From a virus (Duplodnaviria; Caudoviricetes), in the IMG/VR virus record IMGVR_UViG_3300049489_001004, positions 1 to 55,555 of that record: a DNA stretch of 55,555 nucleotides. One strand, 5' to 3'. The notes under the pieces were generated by a model. That model was given only the letters and a program-made list of their open reading frames with translations, had not been told where the DNA came from and made no database searches. The translations under genes were made by a program, and so were the position numbers. Shown one piece after another: positions 6,137-51,885 of the stretch. Numbering within the stretch: position 1 is the first letter of the stretch; each line of letters opens with the position of its first letter.

Positions 6137-6142
6137 AATAAG

Positions 6143-6174
6143 TTGTTGAATTAGAAAAGGTATTGTATACTATT
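6143..6174 (+). promoter_or_regulatory. Putative promoter of the ncRNA array and Ro60 gene
   Basis: TTGTTG-17-TATACT, or TTGAAT-16-TACTAT, about 15 nt before unit 1. Confidence 0.45.
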
Positions 6175-6187
6175 AGAAAACATTCTT

Positions 6188-6320
6188 TGTGCTGAAGTGA
6201 AGTTTAGAGTTACTTCATCTTGAAAATGATCAGAGCGGTTCGATTCCGCAGCGGCTTGCAAAAGCTGTTTAGTGTAACGGGAGCACGAATAATGACTTCG
6301 AGCAACTGGTTCTCAGTACA
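6188..6320 (+). ncRNA. Y RNA-like (YrlA-type) unit 1
   Basis: Terminal stem tgtgctga/tcagtaca; GAAGTG, TTACTTC and TGGTTCTC motifs; T arm gcggTTCGATTccgc, GCAA-capped acceptor-like stem, D arm. Confidence 0.85.
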
Positions 6321-6325
6321 TTTTT

Positions 6326-6442
6326 TTATGTTGATGCGTAGATAAGAGTTACTTCACAGGTTCAATTCCCGTATCTAGTAATGTGAATTGCTAGATGTGC
6401 AATGGCGCACACAAAACTTTAATCGCCTGGTTCTCAACATAA
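6326..6442 (+). ncRNA. Y RNA-like unit 2
   Basis: Stem ttatgttga/tcaacataa; same motifs; T-like arm, GTGA-capped stem, D-like hairpin. Confidence 0.8.
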
Positions 6443-6447
6443 TTCAT

Positions 6448-6523
6448 AGCAGCGTAGAGGAGTCTGGTTGTCCTCGACGGGCTCATATCCCGTAGATCGC
6501 AAGTTCAAATCTTGTCGCTGCCA
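6448..6523 (+). tRNA. tRNA-Met(CAT), initiator type
   Basis: Cloverleaf; anticodon arm acggg-ctCATat-cccgt with three G-C pairs; 1:72 mismatch. Confidence 0.9.
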
Positions 6524-6526
6524 CGA

Positions 6527-6662
6527 TATACCGAAGTGTAGTTTAGAGTTACTTCTTACTCTTAATAAGTTAGAGCGGTTCGACTCCGCAGTAGATTGAA
6601 AAATTTGCTTAGTGTAACGGCAGCACAAAAATGTAAACTTTGAACGATTGGTTCTCGGTATA
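6527..6662 (+). ncRNA. Y RNA-like unit 3
   Basis: Stem tataccga/tcggtata; T arm gcggTTCGACTccgc, GAAA-capped stem, D arm. Confidence 0.85.
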
Positions 6663-6671
6663 ATCAATCAA

Positions 6672-6809
6672 TGTGTCGATGTGAAGAATTGAGATACTTC
6701 GAAAACAATGTGTCCAGGTTCGATTCCTGGCTAGGTGTGTAAACATTTAGTAGCTCAACGGCAGAGCAATTGTCCTGCACTACACTTAATTCGATTTGTT
6801 CTCGACACA
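6672..6809 (+). ncRNA. Y RNA-like unit 4 with classic YrlA layout
   Basis: Stem tgtgtcga/tcgacaca; T arm ccaggTTCGATTcctgg, GTAA-capped stem, D arm tagctcaacggcagagc. Confidence 0.88.
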
Positions 6810-6816
6810 ATTTTTA

Positions 6817-6915
6817 AGTATTGATGTGAAGAGTAGGGATACTTCGGAAAAACTAGGCACACGTCTAGAGTGGGTTCAAACCCCACAGTTCCTTATTCAA
6901 AATGTTCTCAATACT
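6817..6915 (+). ncRNA. Y RNA-like unit 5
   Basis: Stem agtattga/tcaatact; inner stem gagtaggga/tccttattc; hairpin followed by T arm gtgggTTCAAACcccac. Confidence 0.8.
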
Positions 6916-6919
6916 ACTT

Positions 6920-6974
6920 TTACTCTCCTAATCTTTTTCCTATTTCGTCGTCGTGTTGGAGATTAGGAGAGTAA
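6920..6974. repeat. 15-bp perfect inverted repeat
   Basis: ttactctcctaatct ... agattaggagagtaa. Confidence 0.85.
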
Positions 6975-6978
6975 TTTC

Positions 6979-7154
6979 GTTTTCGTTAAACGGTGGGCTT
7001 AGAAGCAGCCATCCGATAATGAGTGGAGCAGTCCTGAGGGTTGGCTTTGGCTGGCCCGAAGGGGTAGATTAATATCTACTAAGGTAGAGCTATGAGACAC
7101 ACTACCTCATCTCCTTTTTAGGGGCCTTAGGCGTAATAGCACATTAACGAAAAC
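6979..7154 (+). ncRNA. Structured RNA resembling the 23S rRNA L11-binding (H43/H44) domain
   Basis: 11-bp closing stem gttttcgttaa/ttaacgaaaac; GGCTTAGAAGCAGCCATC at 6996-7013 and GCGTAATAGC at 7131-7140. Confidence 0.8.
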
Positions 7155-7159
7155 AATCC

Positions 7160-7237
7160 TCTTCCGATGTGAAGATTGGGGTTACTTCATTTTTTGGTAA
7201 TGTAACCGTAAACCTCAATCGATTTGTTCTCGGAAGA
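7160..7237 (+). ncRNA. Minimal Y RNA-like unit 6
   Basis: Stems tcttccga/tcggaaga and gattggggtt/aacctcaatc; shared motifs. Confidence 0.8.
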
Positions 7238-7241
7238 ACCA

Positions 7242-7364
7242 TGCAGGTGTGCTACCTCGATCGAAGAGGAGGAGCTACGAAGCAGGAAAACGATGTTTAA
7301 GCGTTGTATACGGCGCTTTTTCGATCAGCCTGTGAAGTGTGAGTTCGATCCTCACGGCCTGCGC
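7242..7364 (+). ncRNA. Atypical enlarged tRNA-like RNA
   Basis: Acceptor gcaggt/gcctgc, T arm gtgagTTCGATCctcac, expanded D and anticodon regions. Confidence 0.65.
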
Positions 7365-7368
7365 GAAA

Positions 7369-7448
7369 GGTACTGATGCGATACACAGAGTTACTTCATT
7401 AATTTTCACTTAATCAAAAAAAACTTTGTGTGCTTGGTTCTCAGTGCT
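7369..7448 (+). ncRNA. Minimal Y RNA-like unit 7
   Basis: Stems ggtactga/tcagtgct and tacacagagtt/aactttgtgtg. Confidence 0.8.
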
Positions 7449-7456
7449 ACTTTTTA

Positions 7457-7531
7457 ACTTGTGATGCGTAGACTAGAGTTACTTCATAATTGAAATTTAT
7501 AAAAGCCTTTAGTCGCTTGGTTCTCACAAGT
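7457..7531 (+). ncRNA. Minimal Y RNA-like unit 8
   Basis: Stems acttgtga/tcacaagt and gactagag/ctttagtc. Confidence 0.8.
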
Positions 7532-7561
7532 ATTCTTATTAACAAATAGAGAAAAGAGAAA

Positions 7562-9097
7562 ATGATGGCGCATTTCGCCCAGAACGCACAGCAGGCAAAG
7601 CCTGTTGGCGTCACTCAGACGACTACTGCAGCAGTCACCCACGAAGGTGGCCTAGGTTATAGTCTTGATGCTAAGACAGAGCTTTACACTCTTTCGGTGT
7701 CTTCATTCCATGGTCAGAACTCTTATTATGAGTCTGGCGAAAGTCGAGAAGATCGATTTGCTAAGCTTGTTCAGCAAGTGACGAAGGAAGATCCTGATTG
7801 GGTACGAGCTTTTATTCCTTGGCTGCGAAATGAAGCCAACATTAGAAGCAATTCTATTGCTGCAGCTTGCGAATATGTTGCAGCTGGTGGTCCTAACGGT
7901 AGAGCTGTTATTGACAGTTGTATCGTTCGAGCCGATGAACCCGCTGAGATTTTTGGCTATTGGGTGTCTCGTTATGGCCGTAAGTTTCCTGCCCCAGTCA
8001 AGAGAGGCCTCGCAGACGCCGCTCAGAGGCTGTATAACGAGCGCAATGCCCTAAAGTGGGACCAGAATGGCTCGAACGTACGTATGGGCGATATTATCGC
8101 TATGACGCACCCTAAGCCTGTTGGGAACTGGCAGGGCGATCTTTTCACTTATCTGATGGATGTTCGCCACCGCCGTGATAATCCTCGTGGGTTGGAATCT
8201 CTTCCTCTGATTACCAATGTTCTCAATTGGCGTCAGGCTGCTCTTAAGGGAGAGATCAACTATGAACTTCCTGAAGGCGTAACTTGGGAAGCATTATCTT
8301 CTCTCACTAAGATGGATAAGGCTGCCTGGGAAGCCGTTATTCCTCAGATGGGATACATGGCTTTAATTCGCAATCTTCGGAATTTCGAAGAAGCGGGTAT
8401 CAGTAAGTCGATGGTTGACTTTGTCAATGCCAAGATTGCTGACCCAGAAGAAGTTGCGAAGTCACGTCAGCTTCCCATGCGCTTTTGGTCTTCTTACGCT
8501 AACAGCGGAAGTCTCAAGTATGCTCAAGCCCTTGAAGAGGCAATGAATCTTTCTCTGAATAGCATTCCTCATTTCAATGGTAGAACTCTTGTAATGGTAG
8601 ATACTTCAGGCTCAATGATGGGTAGCTATTCTAACAAGGGCACCGTTAGTCCTGTTCAGCAGGCAGCGATCTTTGGTTCTGCTGTTGCCGCGGCTTCTGA
8701 CAACAGCACTGTTGCTATTTATGCTTCAAGTGTTGCTGTTGTTCAGCCTTCGACTTCGGTTCTTCGTACAACAGATACCATTATCAAGTCGGTAGGTAGT
8801 GTGGGCCACGGCACCAATACCTGGCCATCGGTATTACAGATGTGGAATGAGCACGGACCATTCGATCGCGTATTAGTGTTTACTGACATGCAGGATCACC
8901 CCTCAGCTGTCAGCCATAAAAACATTCCGAAGAACGTTCCTATTTACGTTTGGGACTTGGCAGGACATAAGACTGCTAATATCGAGCTCGGCTCCGGCCG
9001 GTATCTATTTGGTGGATTAAGCGACCAAAGCTTCAAGAGCCTTAAGCTTGTCGAGGACTATCAGCCTGGAGTTTGGCCTTGGGCTATTTCGGCCTGA
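7562..9097 (+). CDS. rsr: Ro60/TROVE-domain RNA-binding protein with C-terminal vWA domain
   Basis: THEGGLGY, TWE, MGYMALIRNLRNF, SRQLPMRFWS, VDTSGSM (MIDAS), GTNT and FTDMQ motifs. Confidence 0.95.
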   Translation: MMAHFAQNAQQAKPVGVTQTTTAAVTHEGGLGYSLDAKTELYTLSVSSFHGQNSYYESGESREDRFAKLVQQVTKEDPDWVRAFIPWLRNEANIRSNSIAAACEYVAAGGPNGRAVIDSCIVRADEPAEIFGYWVSRYGRKFPAPVKRGLADAAQRLYNERNALKWDQNGSNVRMGDIIAMTHPKPVGNWQGDLFTYLMDVRHRRDNPRGLESLPLITNVLNWRQAALKGEINYELPEGVTWEALSSLTKMDKAAWEAVIPQMGYMALIRNLRNFEEAGISKSMVDFVNAKIADPEEVAKSRQLPMRFWSSYANSGSLKYAQALEEAMNLSLNSIPHFNGRTLVMVDTSGSMMGSYSNKGTVSPVQQAAIFGSAVAAASDNSTVAIYASSVAVVQPSTSVLRTTDTIIKSVGSVGHGTNTWPSVLQMWNEHGPFDRVLVFTDMQDHPSAVSHKNIPKNVPIYVWDLAGHKTANIELGSGRYLFGGLSDQSFKSLKLVEDYQPGVWPWAISA

Positions 9098-14885: not shown

Positions 14886-14961
14886 GCTCAGGGTAGCTGA
14901 AGGTTCAGCACTGCGTCTCTAAAACGTCAGGTTATTACGGGATCGTTACCCGCCCTGGGCT
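14886..14961 (+). tRNA. Amber-anticodon (CTA) tRNA with 8/4 fold
   Basis: 8-bp acceptor gctcaggg/ccctgggc, loop ctCTAaa (anticodon 14919-14921), 4-bp T stem. Confidence 0.75.
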
Positions 14962-14963
14962 CT

Positions 14964-16804: not shown

Positions 16805-17971
16805 ATGGAAGTATTAAACGATAATTTATATGCGTGGGTAGAAGAATTTGATACCAACACAATTCTTCAGGCTGAAAAATTATCGCGGCTTCCCATTCTA
16901 GCTGGACCAGTTGCGCTCATGCCAGATGCCCACGTTGGTATGGGCGCAACAGTAGGTTCAGTTATAGCTACAAAAAACGCCATCATACCTGCTGCCGTAG
17001 GAGTAGACTTAGGTTGCGGAATGATAGCTATTCGAACGAGCCTTATGTCTGAAGATTTACCTGAAGACTTGGATAAGTTTATGCCTGAAGTAGAGCGTAG
17101 TATCCCCGCAGGCGTAGGCAGAGGGCATTCAGAAGCGACTAAGGGTGCATCCGAATGGTTTGATAAACATGGTATACCCGGAAGCTTGGACACAAAGCAG
17201 AAAAAAACTGCTATGACGCAGATGGGTTCTCTTGGGTCCGGAAACCATTTTTTCGAAGTCTGTTTGGATGAGTCAGACAAGGTCTGGTTAGTTTTACATT
17301 CAGGATCACGTGGAGTTGGAAATACTCTGGCTCAGAATCATATTCGTATAGCTAAATCAGACTTTAAATCTTGGGTCAGCGGAGAATATGATTTAGAAGA
17401 TAAAGATCTAGCGTGGTTCATTGAGGAGACTCCTCAATTCGACGCCTATATCTCTGACATGCTTTGGTCACAGGATTATGCTTTAGCCAATAGAAATTTA
17501 ATGATGCAATCCGTCCTTAAAAATTTCTTTAATTTTGTAGGGACCGGTAAAGTCGAACAAGAAATAAATTGTCATCACAATTTCTGTCAAAGAGAGACCC
17601 ACGGCGACCATTCCGTTTGGGTAACTCGTAAAGGTGCTATCCAAGCCAAAGATACTGACTGGGGAGTTATCCCTGGTTCAATGGGAGCCGAAACCTATAT
17701 CGTTAAAGGCACAGGTAATCCCTTGTCCTGGAACTCATGCTCTCATGGAGCTGGAAGAACTATGAGTCGCAGTAAAGCCAAGACTCTTTTTACCAAAGAA
17801 GATCTTGTTGAATTGATGGGCGACAGAGTGTGGAATAAAGATTCCGCGGCGGCACTTATTGACGAGATTCCTTTGTCTTATAAAGATATCAATAAGGTCA
17901 TGGAAGCACAGAAAGATTTGGTTGAAGTTCAATACAAACTTCATCAGATATTAAATTACAAGGGACAATAA
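16805..17971 (+). CDS. rtcB: RtcB RNA ligase
   Basis: MPDAHVG, GVDLGCG, GSLGSGNHFFE, HSGSRG, HHN, IPGSMG and SHGAGR motifs. Confidence 0.97.
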   Translation: MEVLNDNLYAWVEEFDTNTILQAEKLSRLPILAGPVALMPDAHVGMGATVGSVIATKNAIIPAAVGVDLGCGMIAIRTSLMSEDLPEDLDKFMPEVERSIPAGVGRGHSEATKGASEWFDKHGIPGSLDTKQKKTAMTQMGSLGSGNHFFEVCLDESDKVWLVLHSGSRGVGNTLAQNHIRIAKSDFKSWVSGEYDLEDKDLAWFIEETPQFDAYISDMLWSQDYALANRNLMMQSVLKNFFNFVGTGKVEQEINCHHNFCQRETHGDHSVWVTRKGAIQAKDTDWGVIPGSMGAETYIVKGTGNPLSWNSCSHGAGRTMSRSKAKTLFTKEDLVELMGDRVWNKDSAAALIDEIPLSYKDINKVMEAQKDLVEVQYKLHQILNYKGQ

Positions 17972-29400: not shown

Positions 29401-29762
29401 GCTGAAGAAAGCTTCATCAGGTTTACATAACCTACATTATTATAGGCAAGAATGGTCTGATGATATGGGCCACGTTGGCCCCATTCGTTAATTGAGGGAC
29501 CAGACATTTCTTCTTGGTCGGTATCAAACCTAGACTTTCTTGCCCTGTATGCCTCAATCCCGGGCATAAAGGGAATCCCAAGCTTTTTAGCCGACTTGTA
29601 GGTCGCCATCAAGGTGTGAAGGTTTCCGTGGTCAGTAGAGGTAATGCAGGGTTGACCGAGTTCTAATGCTCTCTGAGCATATTCCTCTGGCTTAGACATT
29701 CCGTCTAAGAAGGAGCCGTATGTATGATTGTGTGCGTTAAAAAATTGGTTTTTATTTTTCAT
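26385..29762 (-). CDS. dnaE: DNA polymerase III alpha subunit
   Basis: PHP domain (HNHT, TDHG), GPGRGS, PDIDVD, HAGG, LLKIDMLGL and LYQEQ motifs. Confidence 0.96.
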   Translation of the reverse strand: MKNKNQFFNAHNHTYGSFLDGMSKPEEYAQRALELGQPCITSTDHGNLHTLMATYKSAKKLGIPFMPGIEAYRARKSRFDTDQEEMSGPSINEWGQRGPYHQTILAYNNVGYVNLMKLSSAAFLEGFARKPRVDLELIERYSEGLVVLSGCLSGALQQALLRGDYEAALAEAGTMQGIVGKDNYFIEIMDHGIPEEKAVHEGLVKIAKAIDAPIVPTCDSHYTHRHDHDDHDILLCISTASQLTTPNRFKFSGDEFYLKSYEEMVDLFPKEWVHNTLLIPEKLDLNIDLDSHHYPVFEIPEESPIKVIPDYFIQAIMDGAEQRFGLNWKTERRDVAERLNTEVKIIQEMGYDSYFLIVADIIKWCLENGILIGPGRGSSASSLVSYCLGITHINPLEYGLLFERFLTPGRVPDIDVDVDSRYRDKVLDYIRNKYGHEKTAQIITISQLKAKSCINDVARVMGFPFNFSQDIVKTMPPAQFGVTKTLDECLEAEEFSRIYNEDPDVKKVIDVGKKLENLWRSDGIHAGGIIIADDIITNYCPIKQKGPGEPVVTQWDMRTVEEVGLLKIDMLGLTTLDIIQDTINRVKKVHGIEIGPPYELVENPDPLVFDSLSRGNTAQVFQMGSDGLTNLAKAMGINSVKDIMAALALYRPGPMGSGFHHSYAKRKRGKQKPIPLHPLLGDVLKDTYGILLYQEQVMAVAKEIAGFDPTAANKFLKSIGKKDREAMAATKGSFTEGCVANGGISQREAEELFAAIEPHADYSFSAAHASVYAYLSYITAYLKYYYPAEFSAACLTSEMFGDGKKFRPVLNDVREKIGVEVTPPSVNYSGFDFTTSEGRVLFSISGLKGIGETKSSSFVNFREESGKSYKTITDFFINANTKVIDKTFVEAMVYSGAFDELISDELVEDIDVEISEQLVILNKENEYLGLAVTDDPFAIYYNSLTFDKVTSPVSDVTAFSDKIRFCGLVKDPEVKVSKAGKKYAKFRVEDGSSIIQALILGKQVEFIESKLKTTLEELLQPGAFISFYCRLQERDEEESVIYITSIVDVHTPKTIDDLLTSISLKVENQNELVIINKILLENPGNKKVYILNKHPDAKLYLKSLSPHRIDEAGEKLLDKYIQRKK

Positions 29763-30943
29763 TTTTCAGTGGCTGCTTTTAAAGCCACAGTAAGATATAA
29801 GTTTTCCCATAAAGTTGAATCCTTACCCACTGCATTAAGATTGCCATTGTTACGGGTGGCGGCATCCCAAGCTTTATTTAATAACTCATAGGCAACCTCT
29901 TCCCAGGAAGTAAGTACGCTGCTAAAATCTTTTTTCCATCTAGCAGAACCGTTTTCGTCTAGCTCAATATGTACTCGCATTGCAGCAAGCAGCGGCCAGA
30001 CAATTGGGTCTTGAAGCACATGAGAGTTTGTAAACTTGCTTCCAAAAAATATATTTCTATTCTTAGAAACCCTTAACTTAGCCAGATAAGAAGATCCGTA
30101 CTTACCGTGACCATTTTTCTTTTCATTCCATAAATCTTGTGCTGATAAAGCAATATAATCATGTAACTGAGCTACTTCAATGGCTATGGGGTATAGTGCC
30201 TCAAAATTCTTGGGTTCAGAAAGGAAACGTTCGACAACTTTACCCTTGCTAGAATAGGCTAATTTAGGATGGGAGCTGCTGTCAGGGTAGTCGATAATAT
30301 TTACACATTCTAGATATCTAATTATGTCACCAACGTCGAGAGGATTATTCTCGTTGTCTTGCCATGAGATTTGGTCTGAGTAATCAGCAAAAACGTTTTT
30401 AAGTTGATCGAAATCTCCATCAAGATTAGCCAATGAAGATTTTGAAACCTGAATAGAACTATTTAATCCACCCGTTATTTGTACTACTAACTCGTTTGTC
30501 AGCCCGGAAATACATTCAACTTTGACATATTCAGTTGGAATAGGAATATTTGCTTCTTCACACTCTTCGATGACTGAGCGAATTATATCGTAAGTATGGC
30601 CACCGTTAATAATTCCACATGATACTGGATCAGTAGTCTCAAAAGTAATCTCTGCTTGATGAGTAGTATTGTCATACTTAAGATCAGATATCAACCATGT
30701 CATGCCTTGATTTCTTAAATGGAATGCTCCACGATTATTATCTTCGTTAGCATCTAAGAGACCTTCCCTAATCTCTTTGTAAAGTTTCTTGTTTATGTTA
30801 GATACTCTAGGGTTAACATCCTTGGGTAAGCCCGCAGGGACATCTTTAACCCGTAAATAAAAAGTTGACCTCTTCACCGAGTCCCCATACGAGGGGTCTT
30901 TCATGGTGCGGAGATCAACGATGGGTAGCGATACTGTCTTCAT
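29759..30943 (-). CDS. AIPR family protein
   Basis: NPR, FHLRNQG, IINGGHT and LNSSIQV motifs. Confidence 0.85.
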   Translation of the reverse strand: MKTVSLPIVDLRTMKDPSYGDSVKRSTFYLRVKDVPAGLPKDVNPRVSNINKKLYKEIREGLLDANEDNNRGAFHLRNQGMTWLISDLKYDNTTHQAEITFETTDPVSCGIINGGHTYDIIRSVIEECEEANIPIPTEYVKVECISGLTNELVVQITGGLNSSIQVSKSSLANLDGDFDQLKNVFADYSDQISWQDNENNPLDVGDIIRYLECVNIIDYPDSSSHPKLAYSSKGKVVERFLSEPKNFEALYPIAIEVAQLHDYIALSAQDLWNEKKNGHGKYGSSYLAKLRVSKNRNIFFGSKFTNSHVLQDPIVWPLLAAMRVHIELDENGSARWKKDFSSVLTSWEEVAYELLNKAWDAATRNNGNLNAVGKDSTLWENLYLTVALKAATEK

Positions 30944-31062: not shown

Positions 31063-31398
31063 TTATCTATCGTTACCTGATCCGGACAATACGCCTCTAT
31101 CTTTACGAGACCTAAGTTTATCCAAATTCTGTTGGGCCACTACACCGAAATCAAAACCAAGGTCTTCACATATAGCAGCAAGATACCAGATGATATCACC
31201 AATTTCTTTGTGTAAATGCTCTAATCTTTCCGCTGAAAACTCACCGTTCTCATCTCTAAGAGCTTTCTTTACTAGCTCTAAAGTTTCTCCGACTTCGCCA
31301 GATAAACCAAGGGCAGGATAGATAACCTTAAACTTCTCGGGATATATTCTAGTGTCACTCGAAAGAAGCTGATACTCTTTAAAGGTTAGATTTTCCAT
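31063..31398 (-). CDS. MazG-like NTP pyrophosphohydrolase
   Basis: LGLSGEVGE...KEIGDIIWY...NLDKL..R...GSGNDR. Confidence 0.92.
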   Translation of the reverse strand: MENLTFKEYQLLSSDTRIYPEKFKVIYPALGLSGEVGETLELVKKALRDENGEFSAERLEHLHKEIGDIIWYLAAICEDLGFDFGVVAQQNLDKLRSRKDRGVLSGSGNDR

Positions 31399-48113: not shown

Positions 48114-48494
48114 CTAGCTTTCTAAGAAAATGGCCGCCGATTCAAAAATTTGTTTTAAATTTGCAATCTGCTTACCGGTCAATTGAGGAATTTCTTCTAC
48201 CTCGTAACCGGCTTTTTGGTTAATAAAAATAGCCCTAATAATACTCTTAAGATAATCGTGCAGATCTACTTGAACAGTAGAGAGAATAGATATTCCTTCG
48301 TATATGTCCGAGACTGTTATGGAGTTATGGTTATTGTCCCTAATCCATTGTTCTAATTGATTTTCTTCGATTATTGATTCAAAGATATCATCTTCGTTTG
48401 AGGAATCTGTCATATGTTCGCTCCCAAATTGTTTGAGGGGCTGGAGTTCTAGTCGCAGCCCCTCATTCGAGCAATTATCTAATCGGGCAGGCAC
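48114..48494 (-). CDS. Hypothetical protein
   Basis: True start likely MTDSS. Confidence 0.55.
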   Translation of the reverse strand: MPARLDNCSNEGLRLELQPLKQFGSEHMTDSSNEDDIFESIIEENQLEQWIRDNNHNSITVSDIYEGISILSTVQVDLHDYLKSIIRAIFINQKAGYEVEEIPQLTGKQIANLKQIFESAAIFLES

Positions 48495-51400
48495 CTGTCG
48501 AACAGTTTTCGTCTAACGACGACCCATGCTCTTCAACCGTACCGTGATAATCATGATACTCTTTTGCCGTGATAGCCTCAATGGGTGACTGTGGCCGAGT
48601 CATCACGGGGAAAATAGTCATTCCTTTTACGTGCGGGAGTCTGCCCATAATAACTTCGTACACATGCTCAAAATCAGTTAACTCTTCAGGCTGAATATTA
48701 GCGGTGAAAGAAACTGCGTTGCCATCATTGCCATTCGTAAAGTGATGCGTCACAAACTGCAGCACCGCAAGCTGCTCATCAAGAGTAACTTCATGAGACT
48801 CCTGAATTAAGCTTTCGTCATAAGAGTCAAGGATTTGATCTCTAACGATATTTTCTACTACTGTGGTATTCTGACTATAGATACAAGGTTCGGTATGGCG
48901 ACCTTCCTCGATCGCCTTATCGATGAGCTTGTCACCGTTTGTAAAACGTACTCTGCGCTTAAAGTATTTCGCCAGGACAGGATGAATTCCGGCTTGAACC
49001 CCAGGAAGGATAGAGATTGTACCGTTCGGAGCTATCGCCGTAACTTTGATTGGTCTAGGAATGCCTAGCTCATCTGCATACCTGTCTGCTGCGAGTCGAA
49101 CCGTGCGACGGAAAGACTCAAGTTTCTCAGCCAAAATTTCCGAATGGGGAATCTCAGAATACTTAACTCCATGAGCAGCTGCCCATTCCTGGAACCCAAA
49201 GAATCCAACTCCAATACGACGGTTTTTAGCCTCTACCATAGCCGTTAGGTTATGATCTGGGACCGTAAGAGTGGCGCGAACCAAATACCGAGCCATGAGT
49301 TCAAAAGCTTCTTTCGCTCCGTCGTCATCGGTACCAAAGGCAGCGAGATTTACTGAGCCAATATTGCAACTTTCGCCCTCTTGCAAGTTAATCTCACCAC
49401 ATTGTAGCGCATTTATTCCAGAGTATCGGTTCCCTACTAGTTTTCCAACGCACAAAGTATGGTTTTCGTCAACAGTTAAGTTGTATACGGTATGCTCGCC
49501 GTCTAGCTCTTCGATCCTTATGACCTTGTGGTTGTGATTATCACCAGCTTCCTGCACAGCTTTCCAGTTTGGGAATGCATTCGGGCTCTTAGGATTTAAT
49601 CTATAGCTAATTTTTTGAGTCCTACAGGCATCTATCCACTCTGGTTTTTGTGGGTCGCGGCCAAGATTATGCTTAAGGTCACAATAGACTTTTGTTTGAG
49701 CAAGTTTTGTCTCGGCCATCTTGTCAGACCAATACTTTGCCGCTGTAGCTTTGCGCTTAGGATCGTTCTCTAAATGCTTATTGCCACATGCCACAGAGCA
49801 GAAAGCTTGTTCCCTCTGCTGATAGTTAACCAAGAAATCATGCTGGCAAGTTTCACATACACGATTTACATAAACGGTCTTATCGACTAGCTGGGCTTCA
49901 TAACCCTGCTGCTCAGCAATTTGTAACAAACGTAAGGTTCGAGTGTCAATACTGTGAGTAATGAAGCCTAGTTTTTCTGCGGCCCAATGTGACAGTTCAA
50001 CAACTGACCCCAGTTCAGAGCGATGAGCGCTGAACGACCTAGGCATATTGGACACATTAGTATCGTTGACCCATTCTTTGTGAGAGAAACGACGACCCAG
50101 TTCTTTAGTTAGTTCGATGGCACGGTTACGAATATCATCATCTGCAAAACCACTGTAACGTGGATTCTTTTCTCCGGATACATCAGCGAGTTGCGCATGT
50201 AGAAGCTGATGCTCACGCCAGGTCATCACGGCAAGATTATCTGGTGAATTATTTAAACCATTAAAATCTTTGTGATGAACGACAATACCGCCAGTGTTCG
50301 CACAACCGCCACACTCTTCGGTTCTAATTTTTGCAGATTCCCAACCATTGGAATCATTAAACTTAGAAATAAGCCGGTGCTCCATTATCTTTCCCTCTTT
50401 TTCCGTGAGGGCATTGGTGTATACTCTCCAATATGGTTGACCATCGGAAGAAAACTTTTCCTGCCGCTTAGTAAACGGCATGAGAGACTGACCGATCTGT
50501 AGATCTTTTGCCTCAACAATTTGACCGTCACGAGTCATCATCTTGTGGTTGGGGGTGACATCTACATAAAAATCTTTGTCTGTGTGAATGCGGAGAAGCT
50601 TTTGGTTATATCCGGTGACGCGAGGGTTACGGCCCATCTTAATAGACACATTCCCAAACTCGTCGGTTGAATAAACCGGGACATCTAGGCCTTCCTTAGC
50701 AAGCTGTTCTAAAGATACTGCGTCACGACCGTCTGCCGTCATAACTAACGTATCTCCAGAGAAGCATGGGTTGGTGCTACGAGTGTCTGAGTGCTCACCA
50801 AATGACGCATAAGAAGAGTTATAGAAGCCTGGCTCGCCATTGTGCACCATCCCGGTTACTACGGCTCTAGCGACAGCTAAAGCGCCCTCTTCATGGCGAG
50901 TTAATGCCTCGAAGAATGAGTCATCAACTTCTACTGAAATATTAGTTGACCAATGCAGCATTGGATTTTCCTTGCAATGAATAAAGTCAAAGATGTGAGG
51001 ATCATCCCAGTGAACAATAGACATCCGTGCACTGCGCCTGGCCCCACCAGCAACGATGGCTTCGGCCAAATAGTGATCGCACTCCATGGCTTCTACTGAA
51101 CTAAGATGTCGTCCAGTAGCCCTCTTTAATACTTCGTGAACTTTAACGAGTGATCCAGCCAATGGATCCGGGCCAGAGGCGGTTCCGCCGAAGGTTTTGA
51201 TTACCTCTCCCCTTGAACGAATCTCGGTGAGATCAAAGTACAGATCAAGCTTTGAGTTAATCCCGGTGGCATGATCGAATAAAAGCCCCCAAGACTCGAC
51301 CCATCCCTCGCGATCATCAGAGATACGATTTAAAGCCACTGCACCATGATTGTAATATAAATCATTGACTCGATCCAGGAAATCTTCAGGCTCTAACCAT

Positions 51401-51885
51401 GACTCACCGGATTGAAGTTTTACGTCATTGTAATCGCGATGAGAACGATCAATGGTAATGTAAATGTTACCCATTTCTCTTATCGGATCAGAAAGAGTTA
51501 AGTATTCCTGAGAATAGTTTGCTCCGACACCACCACCGGTCATAAGCTGTGAGCCCATGAATTCAAAATGATCTGCTAAACGAGAAGTAAATGGTGCCCT
51601 AAAACAATTCCTTACATATGGCAAGCCGGTTCCGGTCACCCATAGATGTCGACCAGCGGGGATCATCTCAAAGGAATAAATAAGTTCAGCGACTCTTTTA
51701 CGTTCGTCCGGATCTGATATGGTAGAAGTAACCCTATCAACTGTTTCGGCCCAAGTTTCTTTTTCTCCGTTAGCTTTAATTCTACTATAGGTTCGTTCGT
51801 AAACGACCTCTCCCATTGGCCCCCAAACAGGCTTTTCTAGCGTGTCTAGATGTGTCACAACTGAATTTTGGGTAAAAGATTCCAT
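48475..51885 (-). CDS. nrdJ: Class II (B12-dependent) ribonucleotide reductase containing an intein
   Basis: YERTYSR, PAGRHLW, GGGVG, VAGGARRSA, NP-(intein)-CGEI, APNGT and C-terminal CSTGACPIR. Confidence 0.95.
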   Translation of the reverse strand: MESFTQNSVVTHLDTLEKPVWGPMGEVVYERTYSRIKANGEKETWAETVDRVTSTISDPDERKRVAELIYSFEMIPAGRHLWVTGTGLPYVRNCFRAPFTSRLADHFEFMGSQLMTGGGVGANYSQEYLTLSDPIREMGNIYITIDRSHRDYNDVKLQSGESWLEPEDFLDRVNDLYYNHGAVALNRISDDREGWVESWGLLFDHATGINSKLDLYFDLTEIRSRGEVIKTFGGTASGPDPLAGSLVKVHEVLKRATGRHLSSVEAMECDHYLAEAIVAGGARRSARMSIVHWDDPHIFDFIHCKENPMLHWSTNISVEVDDSFFEALTRHEEGALAVARAVVTGMVHNGEPGFYNSSYASFGEHSDTRSTNPCFSGDTLVMTADGRDAVSLEQLAKEGLDVPVYSTDEFGNVSIKMGRNPRVTGYNQKLLRIHTDKDFYVDVTPNHKMMTRDGQIVEAKDLQIGQSLMPFTKRQEKFSSDGQPYWRVYTNALTEKEGKIMEHRLISKFNDSNGWESAKIRTEECGGCANTGGIVVHHKDFNGLNNSPDNLAVMTWREHQLLHAQLADVSGEKNPRYSGFADDDIRNRAIELTKELGRRFSHKEWVNDTNVSNMPRSFSAHRSELGSVVELSHWAAEKLGFITHSIDTRTLRLLQIAEQQGYEAQLVDKTVYVNRVCETCQHDFLVNYQQREQAFCSVACGNKHLENDPKRKATAAKYWSDKMAETKLAQTKVYCDLKHNLGRDPQKPEWIDACRTQKISYRLNPKSPNAFPNWKAVQEAGDNHNHKVIRIEELDGEHTVYNLTVDENHTLCVGKLVGNRYSGINALQCGEINLQEGESCNIGSVNLAAFGTDDDGAKEAFELMARYLVRATLTVPDHNLTAMVEAKNRRIGVGFFGFQEWAAAHGVKYSEIPHSEILAEKLESFRRTVRLAADRYADELGIPRPIKVTAIAPNGTISILPGVQAGIHPVLAKYFKRRVRFTNGDKLIDKAIEEGRHTEPCIYSQNTTVVENIVRDQILDSYDESLIQESHEVTLDEQLAVLQFVTHHFTNGNDGNAVSFTANIQPEELTDFEHVYEVIMGRLPHVKGMTIFPVMTRPQSPIEAITAKEYHDYHGTVEEHGSSLDENCSTGACPIR
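49402..50766 (-). mobile_element. 455-aa intein with HNH homing endonuclease and C-terminal Gln
   Basis: Begins CFSGDT after TNP; has block B VTPNHK, HHKDFNGLNN..DNL, block F VYNLTV; ends ALQ before CGEI. Confidence 0.92.

Follow-up and report, generated by a model that had tools for sequence, protein, structure and literature searches.

A phage RNA resembling the uL11-binding GTPase-associated centre of 23S rRNA, encoded in a small-RNA island of a freshwater-sediment phage

The GTPase-associated centre of bacterial 23S rRNA, a uL11- and thiostrepton-binding domain of about 58-60 nt made up of the tip of H42, H43 and H44, serves as the binding site of uL11 and is contacted by every translational GTPase; it is also required to activate RelA and is targeted by thiopeptide antibiotics. 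RNAs that copy the rRNA site of a ribosomal protein outside the ribosome are represented by the ribosomal-protein leader RNAs: the L10 leader and the L1 site of the L11 operon imitate rRNA binding sites, and these cis-acting mRNA leaders of cellular ribosomal-protein operons are usually loose imitations. Phages also make RNA decoys, among them the RNA anti-CRISPRs. The pseudo-ToxI RNA of phage PhiTE is such a decoy (PMC3475682), and two further reports place Y-like RNAs upstream of phage Ro60 genes (PMC4201824, PMC12135203). The element analysed here, called the mimic, can be compared with each of these. Like the leaders, it is an RNA copying the rRNA site of a ribosomal protein outside the ribosome, but it is a stand-alone, near-exact phage copy with no ribosomal-protein gene nearby. 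As with pseudo-ToxI and the RNA anti-CRISPRs, it is proposed that a phage RNA imitates a host RNA to occupy a protein partner; the target of the mimic, however, would be a ribosomal site, and no defence system is known to be involved. The Y RNAs and YrlA (RF02553), tRNA-mimicking RNAs found beside Ro60/Rsr in bacteria and phages, share with the mimic of this window their small size, their encoding by a phage, the imitation of one part of the translation apparatus and the neighbourhood of rsr, but the mimic lacks the Rsr-binding stem module, imitates rRNA rather than tRNA and does not travel with rsr across phages.

The window, i.e. the whole 55,555-bp stretch of DNA analysed, is the record of a large freshwater-sediment phage, estimated to be 26% complete, and encodes DNA polymerase III alpha, a DnaB-type helicase, an intein-bearing ribonucleotide reductase, ThyX, MazG, RtcB and seven tRNAs. 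A single-protein scan found no close relatives of this phage, the best protein relatives showing 83%, 67% and 66% identity and the best in the DNA collections 50% (for the metagenome collection, in 23 of its 64 parts). The ribonucleotide reductase gene (48475-51885) is interrupted by an intein with an HNH endonuclease, the MazG pyrophosphohydrolase is encoded at 31063-31398, and a protein of the AIPR (abortive-infection) type at 29759-30943, inside the phage. At 14886-14962, ARAGORN called a tRNA with the anticodon CTA (an amber suppressor, labelled Pyl), which scored below threshold with the Rfam tRNA model; the open reading frames are long under the standard code, so that TAG recoding of the whole genome is not indicated.

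The mimic is 176 bases long and is located on the plus strand at 6979-7154, in a region (6137-7561) with no ORF of at least 80 aa. Its two ends, GTTTTCGTTAA (6979-6989) and TTAACGAAAAC (7144-7154), are 100% complementary over 11 nt and form the closing helix, with the 5' strand in the register of H42 positions 1045-1055 and the 3' strand corresponding to 1104-1114. Within this helix, A1056 and the H43 hairpin (1057-1081) extend over 6990-7015, with the 9-nt 1067 loop at 6999-7007 and A1067 at 7001; here GGCTTAGAAGCAGCCATC (6996-7013) is an exact 18-nt copy of the 1067 hairpin of 23S rRNA. This 18-mer occurs once in the window, and shuffled sequences gave on average 0.01 matches even with 3 mismatches permitted. 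It is followed at 7016-7024, still in register with 23S, by the junction 1082-1086 (AUAAU) and by G1087, A1088, G1089 and U1090, the GAGT(G) being at 7021-7025. A lineage-specific insert domain of 102 nt with predicted hairpins (7025-7126) and a UUAG linker (7127-7130) then separate U1090 from G1091. Downstream are the 3' part of H44 (G1091-A1103, 7131-7143, ending in A1101, C1102 and A1103), which bears the 1095-loop motif GCGTAATAGC at 7131-7140 with A1095 at 7135, and the 3' strand of the closing helix. The initial annotation had described the perfect 11-bp stem, both motifs and GAGTG, and all of these were found at the positions it had given. It had also described a hairpin-rich insert of about 100 nt. 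Counting the 4-nt linker, the insert measures 106 nt (7025-7130), and the gtagat/atctac hairpin was present in the minimum-energy fold, but cccgaaggg and atgag/ctcat were displaced there by competing helices. Folded alone, the insert did no better than shuffles (z -1.35), and BLAST of the whole non-coding region against 120 viral loci matched the core and found no relatives of the insert; the insert helices of the window element are predicted only.

The mimic was then set against the fetched E. coli rrlH sequence, in which L122:110-167 corresponds to 23S 1051-1108 and with which the H43-H44 sequence given in the initial annotation agreed. In this register, 6985-7024 of the window corresponds to 1051-1090 and 7131-7148 to 1091-1108, and 40 of the 58 positions are identical to E. 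coli. The mimic has the same three-way junction and the same loop sequences as the GTPase-associated centre. Fifteen of the 18 differences fall in eight pairs that are still base-paired (1051/1108, 1052/1107, 1053/1106, 1055/1104, 1057/1081, 1058/1080, 1082/1086 and 1090/1101), the remaining three being at 1056, 1061 and 1089. C1057-G1081 and G1058-C1080 are compensated changes with respect to E. coli, A1082-U1086 replaces U-A, and U1090-A1101 replaces the A-U of E. coli. The non-canonical pairs 1056.1103, 1060.1078 and 1061.1077 are shared with 23S rRNA, U1060.U1078 and G1061.A1077 being retained in the mimic as in its family, and the 1082-1086 pair is kept. The roles that we assign to this pair, to U1060/A1088 and to the G1071 and C1072 triples in the tertiary fold are presumed from the crystal structures of L11-RNA complexes. 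Since the pairing is in register and 15 of 18 differences lie in positions that remain paired, the 11-bp stem is the continuation of H42 and no foreign clamp. The claim that both loops are kept in order while the flanking stem is replaced is thus right as to the loops but not as to the stem, which continues H42 in register with A1055-U1104 in place of G1055-C1104. Unlike the GTPase-associated centre of 23S rRNA, the mimic lies outside any rRNA gene, has its own 11-bp closing stem, A1101 and a 106-nt insert at 1090/1091, and is encoded by a phage among small-RNA genes. The LSU rRNA model (Rfam RF02541) had no match in the record, with 13 of the 14 control genomes matching, and no LSU match at E <= 10 was found around the element.

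We found that the mimic belongs to a large phage-specific family. A scan of viral contigs with a 15-nt loop motif retrieved at least 120 stretches (about 300 estimated), and the family in the viral collection is estimated at about 250-300 stretches. In a strict test of the H43 context, 90 sites passed and 32 failed, the window's own site being among the failures owing to AA at 1055-1056; a looser test gave 97 sites in 96 loci. A search of phage sequences for both loop motifs yielded 54 distinct elements carrying GCGUAAYAGCA at 74-326 nt downstream of the first motif, and all 54 have their insert, 74-326 nt in length, at the identical 1090/1091 junction. Homologues keeping both loops exist, therefore, and the H43/H44 fold is upheld by covariation across the family. 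When elements were anchored on both motifs, 397 of 432 cells in the first eight pairs of the closing helix were paired (92%), against 32-40% with the partner slid by 1-2 nt. In the same way, a MAFFT alignment of 21 rows (19 members, the window and E. coli) with a hand-written structure showed 94.8% of cells paired compared to 71.9% in shuffles and 31-52% in slid controls, and a covariation score of 0.537 compared to 0.128 in shuffles, with none of 500 shuffles reaching the observed value. Changes on both sides were seen at all nine H42 pairs, at two H43 pairs and at the 1082-1086 pair, which is UA in 12 rows, CG in 6 and AU in 3. The covariation of closing stem, H43 and 1082-1086, the fixed fold-forming nucleotides and the lack of an LSU match bear out the proposal that selection has shaped this RNA as a structural mimic of the H42 tip, H43 and H44 and that it is not rRNA debris.

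The conservation of individual bases was examined in several samples. G1087, A1088 and G1089 are present in 42 of 42 in-register members and C1102 and A1103 in 54 of 54; among these 54, the linker is UUUG in 44, UUUA in 4, UUAG (as in the window) in 3 and another sequence in 3, and position 1061 is U in 31, A in 17, G in 5 and C in 1. The window element has every feature of the family, namely the covarying closing helix, H43 with a 9-nt loop, the 1082-1086 pair with GAGU, the insert with a UUUG-type linker, GCGUAAYAGCA with C1102/A1103, and the small-RNA neighbourhood. Because the motif of the first scan admitted no variation in the 1067 loop, a rescan was done with the 3' signature of the family and gave at least 119 loci, comprising 101 distinct elements. 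The H43 loop was recognisable in 78 of them and not in the other 23 (insert beyond the available DNA, short flanks, chance matches). In these 78, G1071 and C1072 are invariant and A1073 is kept in 77, while A1067 is changed in 11, G1068 in 15 and A1070 in 10. Of the elements anchored on the 5' side, 36 lacked the exact 3' motif, and a search for the closing strand recovered a variant 1095 loop in 16 of them (GUAGUA, GUAGCA, GUAAAA, GUAGAA and GUAAGA were seen); in these loops 1096 and 1097 vary and A1095 is altered once. Overall, A1095 is kept in 69 of the 70 members with a readable 1095 loop, and G1093, U1094, A1095 and A1098 are nearly invariant across the family. As described in a study of the GTPase-associated centre, L11 binding depends on the tertiary fold, A1061, A1067 and A1069 contribute no hydrogen bonds to that fold, and A1095 makes no tertiary contact but contacts cofactors (PMC6239185). 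The strict conservation of fold-forming bases, the relaxation of several exposed ones and the retention of A1095 favour the view that both the fold and its recognition by some reader are under selection; the retained A1095 leaves room for a partner contacting this base.

GAGU at 1087-1090, A1101, the UUUG/UUAG linker and the 1090/1091 insert are common to phages of unrelated hosts, which argues that the family forms a lineage of its own and does not stem from repeated capture of host rRNA. Cronobacter phage GAP32, which has an enterobacterial host, carries the GAGU and C1097 of the family and not the E. coli-type sequence, pointing to descent within phages and not to recopying from each host. 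In the 21-row alignment, the inserts form subfamilies with shared blocks (L012, L076, L083 and L027; and L031, L073, L087, L009 and L097), and these resemble separate conserved add-on domains grafted at the one 1090/1091 junction. Two further elements are of particular form: L016 is nearly insert-free, with 13 nt between the loop motifs and flanks unlike those of E. coli 23S, and L086 has a contiguous H43-H44 with flanks close to rRNA, so that it is either a candidate member or a true 23S fragment.

In cellular genomes, a 16-nt 3' pattern is a weak probe, with 115 of the 121 matches listed due to chance and 6 of these 121 being true members; as far as these searches go, the family appears phage-specific and rare in cellular genomes. 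A tRNA was found within 2.5 kb at 45 of the 63 loci with enough flank (median distance, 141 nt). Several cultured phages carry the mimic with no matching annotated feature: the Pseudomonas phages UNO-G1W1 (a P. fluorescens phage), Astolliot, pf16 (a Pseudomonas putida phage) and Milchi, Aeromonas phage 4_4572, Xanthomonas phages XacN1 and XaC1, Paenibacillus phage Pd_22F and Cronobacter phage GAP32; the hosts of pf16 and UNO-G1W1 are harmless. Rfam 15 has no family matching the element, either at gathering scores or at E <= 10, and in full-text literature searches we met with no account of a phage RNA that copies a domain of rRNA; on this basis we take the family to be a new kind of phage RNA. 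For PA5oct, a relative of GAP32, one report gives four ncRNAs defined by RNA-seq (PMC7318152). Its ncRNA001 was considered as a family member and rejected, and the PA5oct genome has no convincing loop motif.

In the window, the mimic is part of an island of small-RNA features on the plus strand. Eight Y-RNA-like units, at 6188-6320, 6327-6441, 6527-6662, 6672-6809 and 6817-6915 (units 1-5) and at 7160-7237, 7369-7448 and 7457-7531 (units 6-8), share a stem-and-box module: an 8-bp closing stem ending in GA/UC, whose sequence varies between units with the pairing always kept, and just inside it the boxes UGYGNAG on the 5' side and UKGUUC on the 3' side. In four units, a hairpin stands between a T-arm and a D-arm, in the same order as in YrlA, and the other four are short; one of the first-named four gave a weak match of 27 bits to the Rfam YrlA model, under its 69-bit threshold. 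The same module was found upstream of rsr in three other phage contigs (L374, L381 and L383). Eight copies are far above the two Y RNAs reportedly present in Thermus phage phiLo. No YrlA match was obtained on 6979-7154, and the stem and flanks of the mimic lack both Y-unit boxes. The mimic lies between units 5 and 6, 455 nt downstream of a tRNA-Met (6448-6524) and directly after a perfect 15-bp hairpin with a 25-nt loop (6920-6974), which may be an RNase III-type processing site splitting it from the upstream Y-like units. The gene for a phage Ro60/Rsr orthologue with TROVE and vWA domains (7562-9097; Pfam TROVE E 8.3e-18; 4123 relatives at E <= 1e-10) begins 408 nt downstream of the mimic on the same strand, and the RtcB RNA ligase gene is at 16805-17971, 8 kb from rsr, as in bacterial rsr-rtc operons.

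Another element, at about 7244-7364, is tRNA-like and combines a 7-bp stem of the acceptor type, a perfect T-arm and a central arm of great length. It was called neither by standard ARAGORN nor by Rfam; relaxed ARAGORN settings read it as a tRNA-Arg(acg) with a 32-nt intron. With introns allowed, ARAGORN also proposed a tRNA-Trp split by 434 nt around the mimic (6859-7364), which was judged a false call because of 2 mismatches in the acceptor stem and because the 5' half falls within Y-like unit 5; the Rfam search of the locus returned no intron family at E <= 10. A metatranscriptome from another study contains one contig identical to 6258-6429 and one near-identical to 6715-6892, with none over rsr, a weak hint that the Y-like array is expressed. 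The latter, a single contig of depth 3.2, shows five C-to-T changes clustered at 6774-6783, which could reflect a strain variant, a G-C to G-U drift of a stem or an RNA modification. The sole contig over 6992-7025 was recognised by its loose ends as real rRNA of another organism; this dataset has no phage-specific contig of the mimic and is uninformative on its expression.

As for function, the reading that we put forward, and hold as quite possible though somewhat short of probable, is that the mimic, in its anatomy a free-standing non-coding RNA that folds as a self-closed GTPase-associated centre, acts off the ribosome on a host component, most likely uL11. The functions put forward in the initial annotation, namely sequestration of uL11, a damped stringent response or a toxin decoy, are plausible. 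No protein recurs beside the mimic (any one family is present at 4 of 63 loci at most), and a uL11 domain is encoded in none of the 51 mimic-bearing records, window included, 22 of which are at least 90% complete; in the window's own record, no ribosomal-protein domain was found among the 71 ORFs scanned, and uL11 is absent. From these counts, the partner is probably a host-encoded factor. The best candidate would be uL11, as its C-terminal domain reads exactly this fold, as conservation is concentrated on the fold-forming bases and as none of the phages supplies a uL11 itself. The RNA would be transcribed in the same direction as the surrounding tRNA and Y-RNA-like genes and would display, off the ribosome, the folded centre to the host component that normally recognises it, most likely free uL11, of which the C-terminal domain is the part that binds this autonomous fold. 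Held back or redirected in this way, uL11 would be missing from ribosomes built during infection, which would lack the normal stalk base, and uL11-dependent responses such as RelA activation might be weakened, both of these consequences being guesses. Several points speak against uL11 capture: loss of uL11 would slow the translation that the phage itself needs, the insert at 1090/1091 may be an obstacle to uL11 binding, and the large inserts, conserved within subfamilies, may carry the real function. The retention of A1095, which has no tertiary contact, is a hint that something else, instead of the uL11 C-terminal domain or in addition to it, is the partner.

The main rival to uL11 capture, unlikely in our view though to be taken seriously, is that the mimic serves as a decoy for a toxin of the host or of a competitor, soaking up an enzyme that modifies or cuts H43/H44. 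Phage tRNA sets are thought to counter tRNA-targeting defences in an analogous manner, and the mimic sits with tRNA genes and, here, shares an island devoted to RNA care with the Y-like RNAs, RtcB and Rsr. Enzymes against this site exist, as Tre23 proves: it ADP-ribosylates helix 44 of 23S rRNA within the segment 1095-1098 and thereby impairs the GTPase of EF-G (PMC8661411). The near-invariance of G1093, U1094, A1095 and A1098, though A1095 is dispensable for the fold, would also fit a decoy, but 1096 and 1097 are free to vary although they belong to the segment mapped for Tre23, such an RNA would have to compete with tens of thousands of ribosomes, and no anti-phage system against this rRNA site was found in the literature searched. 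It is improbable, on another reading, that the rRNA-like fold is a stable scaffold only, comparable to a tRNA scaffold, with the variable 1090/1091 insert as the working part: inserts of 74-326 nt, some with a block common within a subfamily (one in L012/L076/L083, another in L031/L073/L087), agree with this, yet the inserts are unrelated between lineages around a nearly invariant core, the forms L016 (13 nt between motifs) and L086 in viral contigs have little or no insert, and a scaffold does not need fixed exposed loop bases such as A1095. The retention of that base speaks for a further reading, in which the mimic is a platform for what contacts the centre, i.e. EF-G, the EF-Tu ternary complex, RelA or the tRNA elbow, holding these off ribosomes or gathering tRNA-like RNAs. 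In ribosome structures the GTPase-associated centre meets the elbow of the incoming tRNA, and the family is found among tRNA genes and, here, among tRNA-like Y RNAs. We nevertheless regard a platform as quite improbable: 11 of the 78 elements differ at A1067, the second base that contacts factors, the sarcin-ricin loop, also needed by GTPases, has no copy in the window, and isolated H43/H44 is not, to our knowledge, known to bind factors without the rest of the subunit.

The mimic is encoded on the strand of rsr, 408 nt ahead of that gene and in the gap that separates Y-like unit 5 from unit 6. This raises the question of a role, in this phage only, as component or substrate of the phage Rsr-Y RNA particle, e.g. 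as a bait pointing an Rsr-exonuclease complex at host 23S rRNA or pre-ribosomes, and Rsr is tied to 23S rRNA maturation and rRNA decay in Deinococcus (PMC4201824). The mimic, however, is devoid of the Y-unit module, with its 8-bp GA/UC stem and two boxes. TROVE is present in 2 of 50 mimic-bearing records, at about 7 kb (in record G012, with ORFs between) and about 135 kb from the mimic, and the mimic was found within 2.5-3.5 kb of other Rsr genes at 0 of 80 viral and 0 of 58 metagenomic loci (0 of 138). On these counts Rsr was rejected as the general partner of the mimic, and a role in an Rsr particle is very unlikely. We read their co-location as shared housing in a phage small-RNA cluster; a local functional tie between the two is possible but unlikely. 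That the element is a non-functional remnant left by capture of a host 23S rRNA gene, or a piece of a genuine rRNA gene, is next to impossible: the two loops are highly identical to rRNA, but the record has no LSU match, the closing stem is the element's own and covaries, and features specific to the family are common to phages of unrelated hosts, including GAP32 with its GAGU and C1097 in place of the host type. The covariation counts contradict this reading directly.

It is conceivable, if on balance doubtful, that large lytic phages with many different hosts carry an off-ribosome copy of the uL11/GTPase-centre site against translation-linked alarm or defence of the host, either by uL11 capture, so that RelA-type sensing of stalled ribosomes fails, or by absorbing enzymes that attack the site, and that in this phage the copy is housed in an island with eight Y-like RNAs, Rsr, RtcB and tRNAs. 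If true, the mimic would be the first rRNA-domain decoy and would define a new class of phage-host conflict at the base of the ribosomal stalk. The GTPase-associated centre is among the most conserved functional sites of the ribosome and is targeted by at least one ADP-ribosylating toxin; from the presence of a near-exact, free-standing copy, kept by selection in phage genomes by the hundred, it follows that some reader of this site is being manipulated by phages. The identity of the partner could expose a new layer of phage-host conflict at the ribosome, could partly explain the small-RNA gene clusters of large phages, and could provide a tool of natural origin, an RNA that folds well and can be used to bind uL11 or compounds directed at this site.
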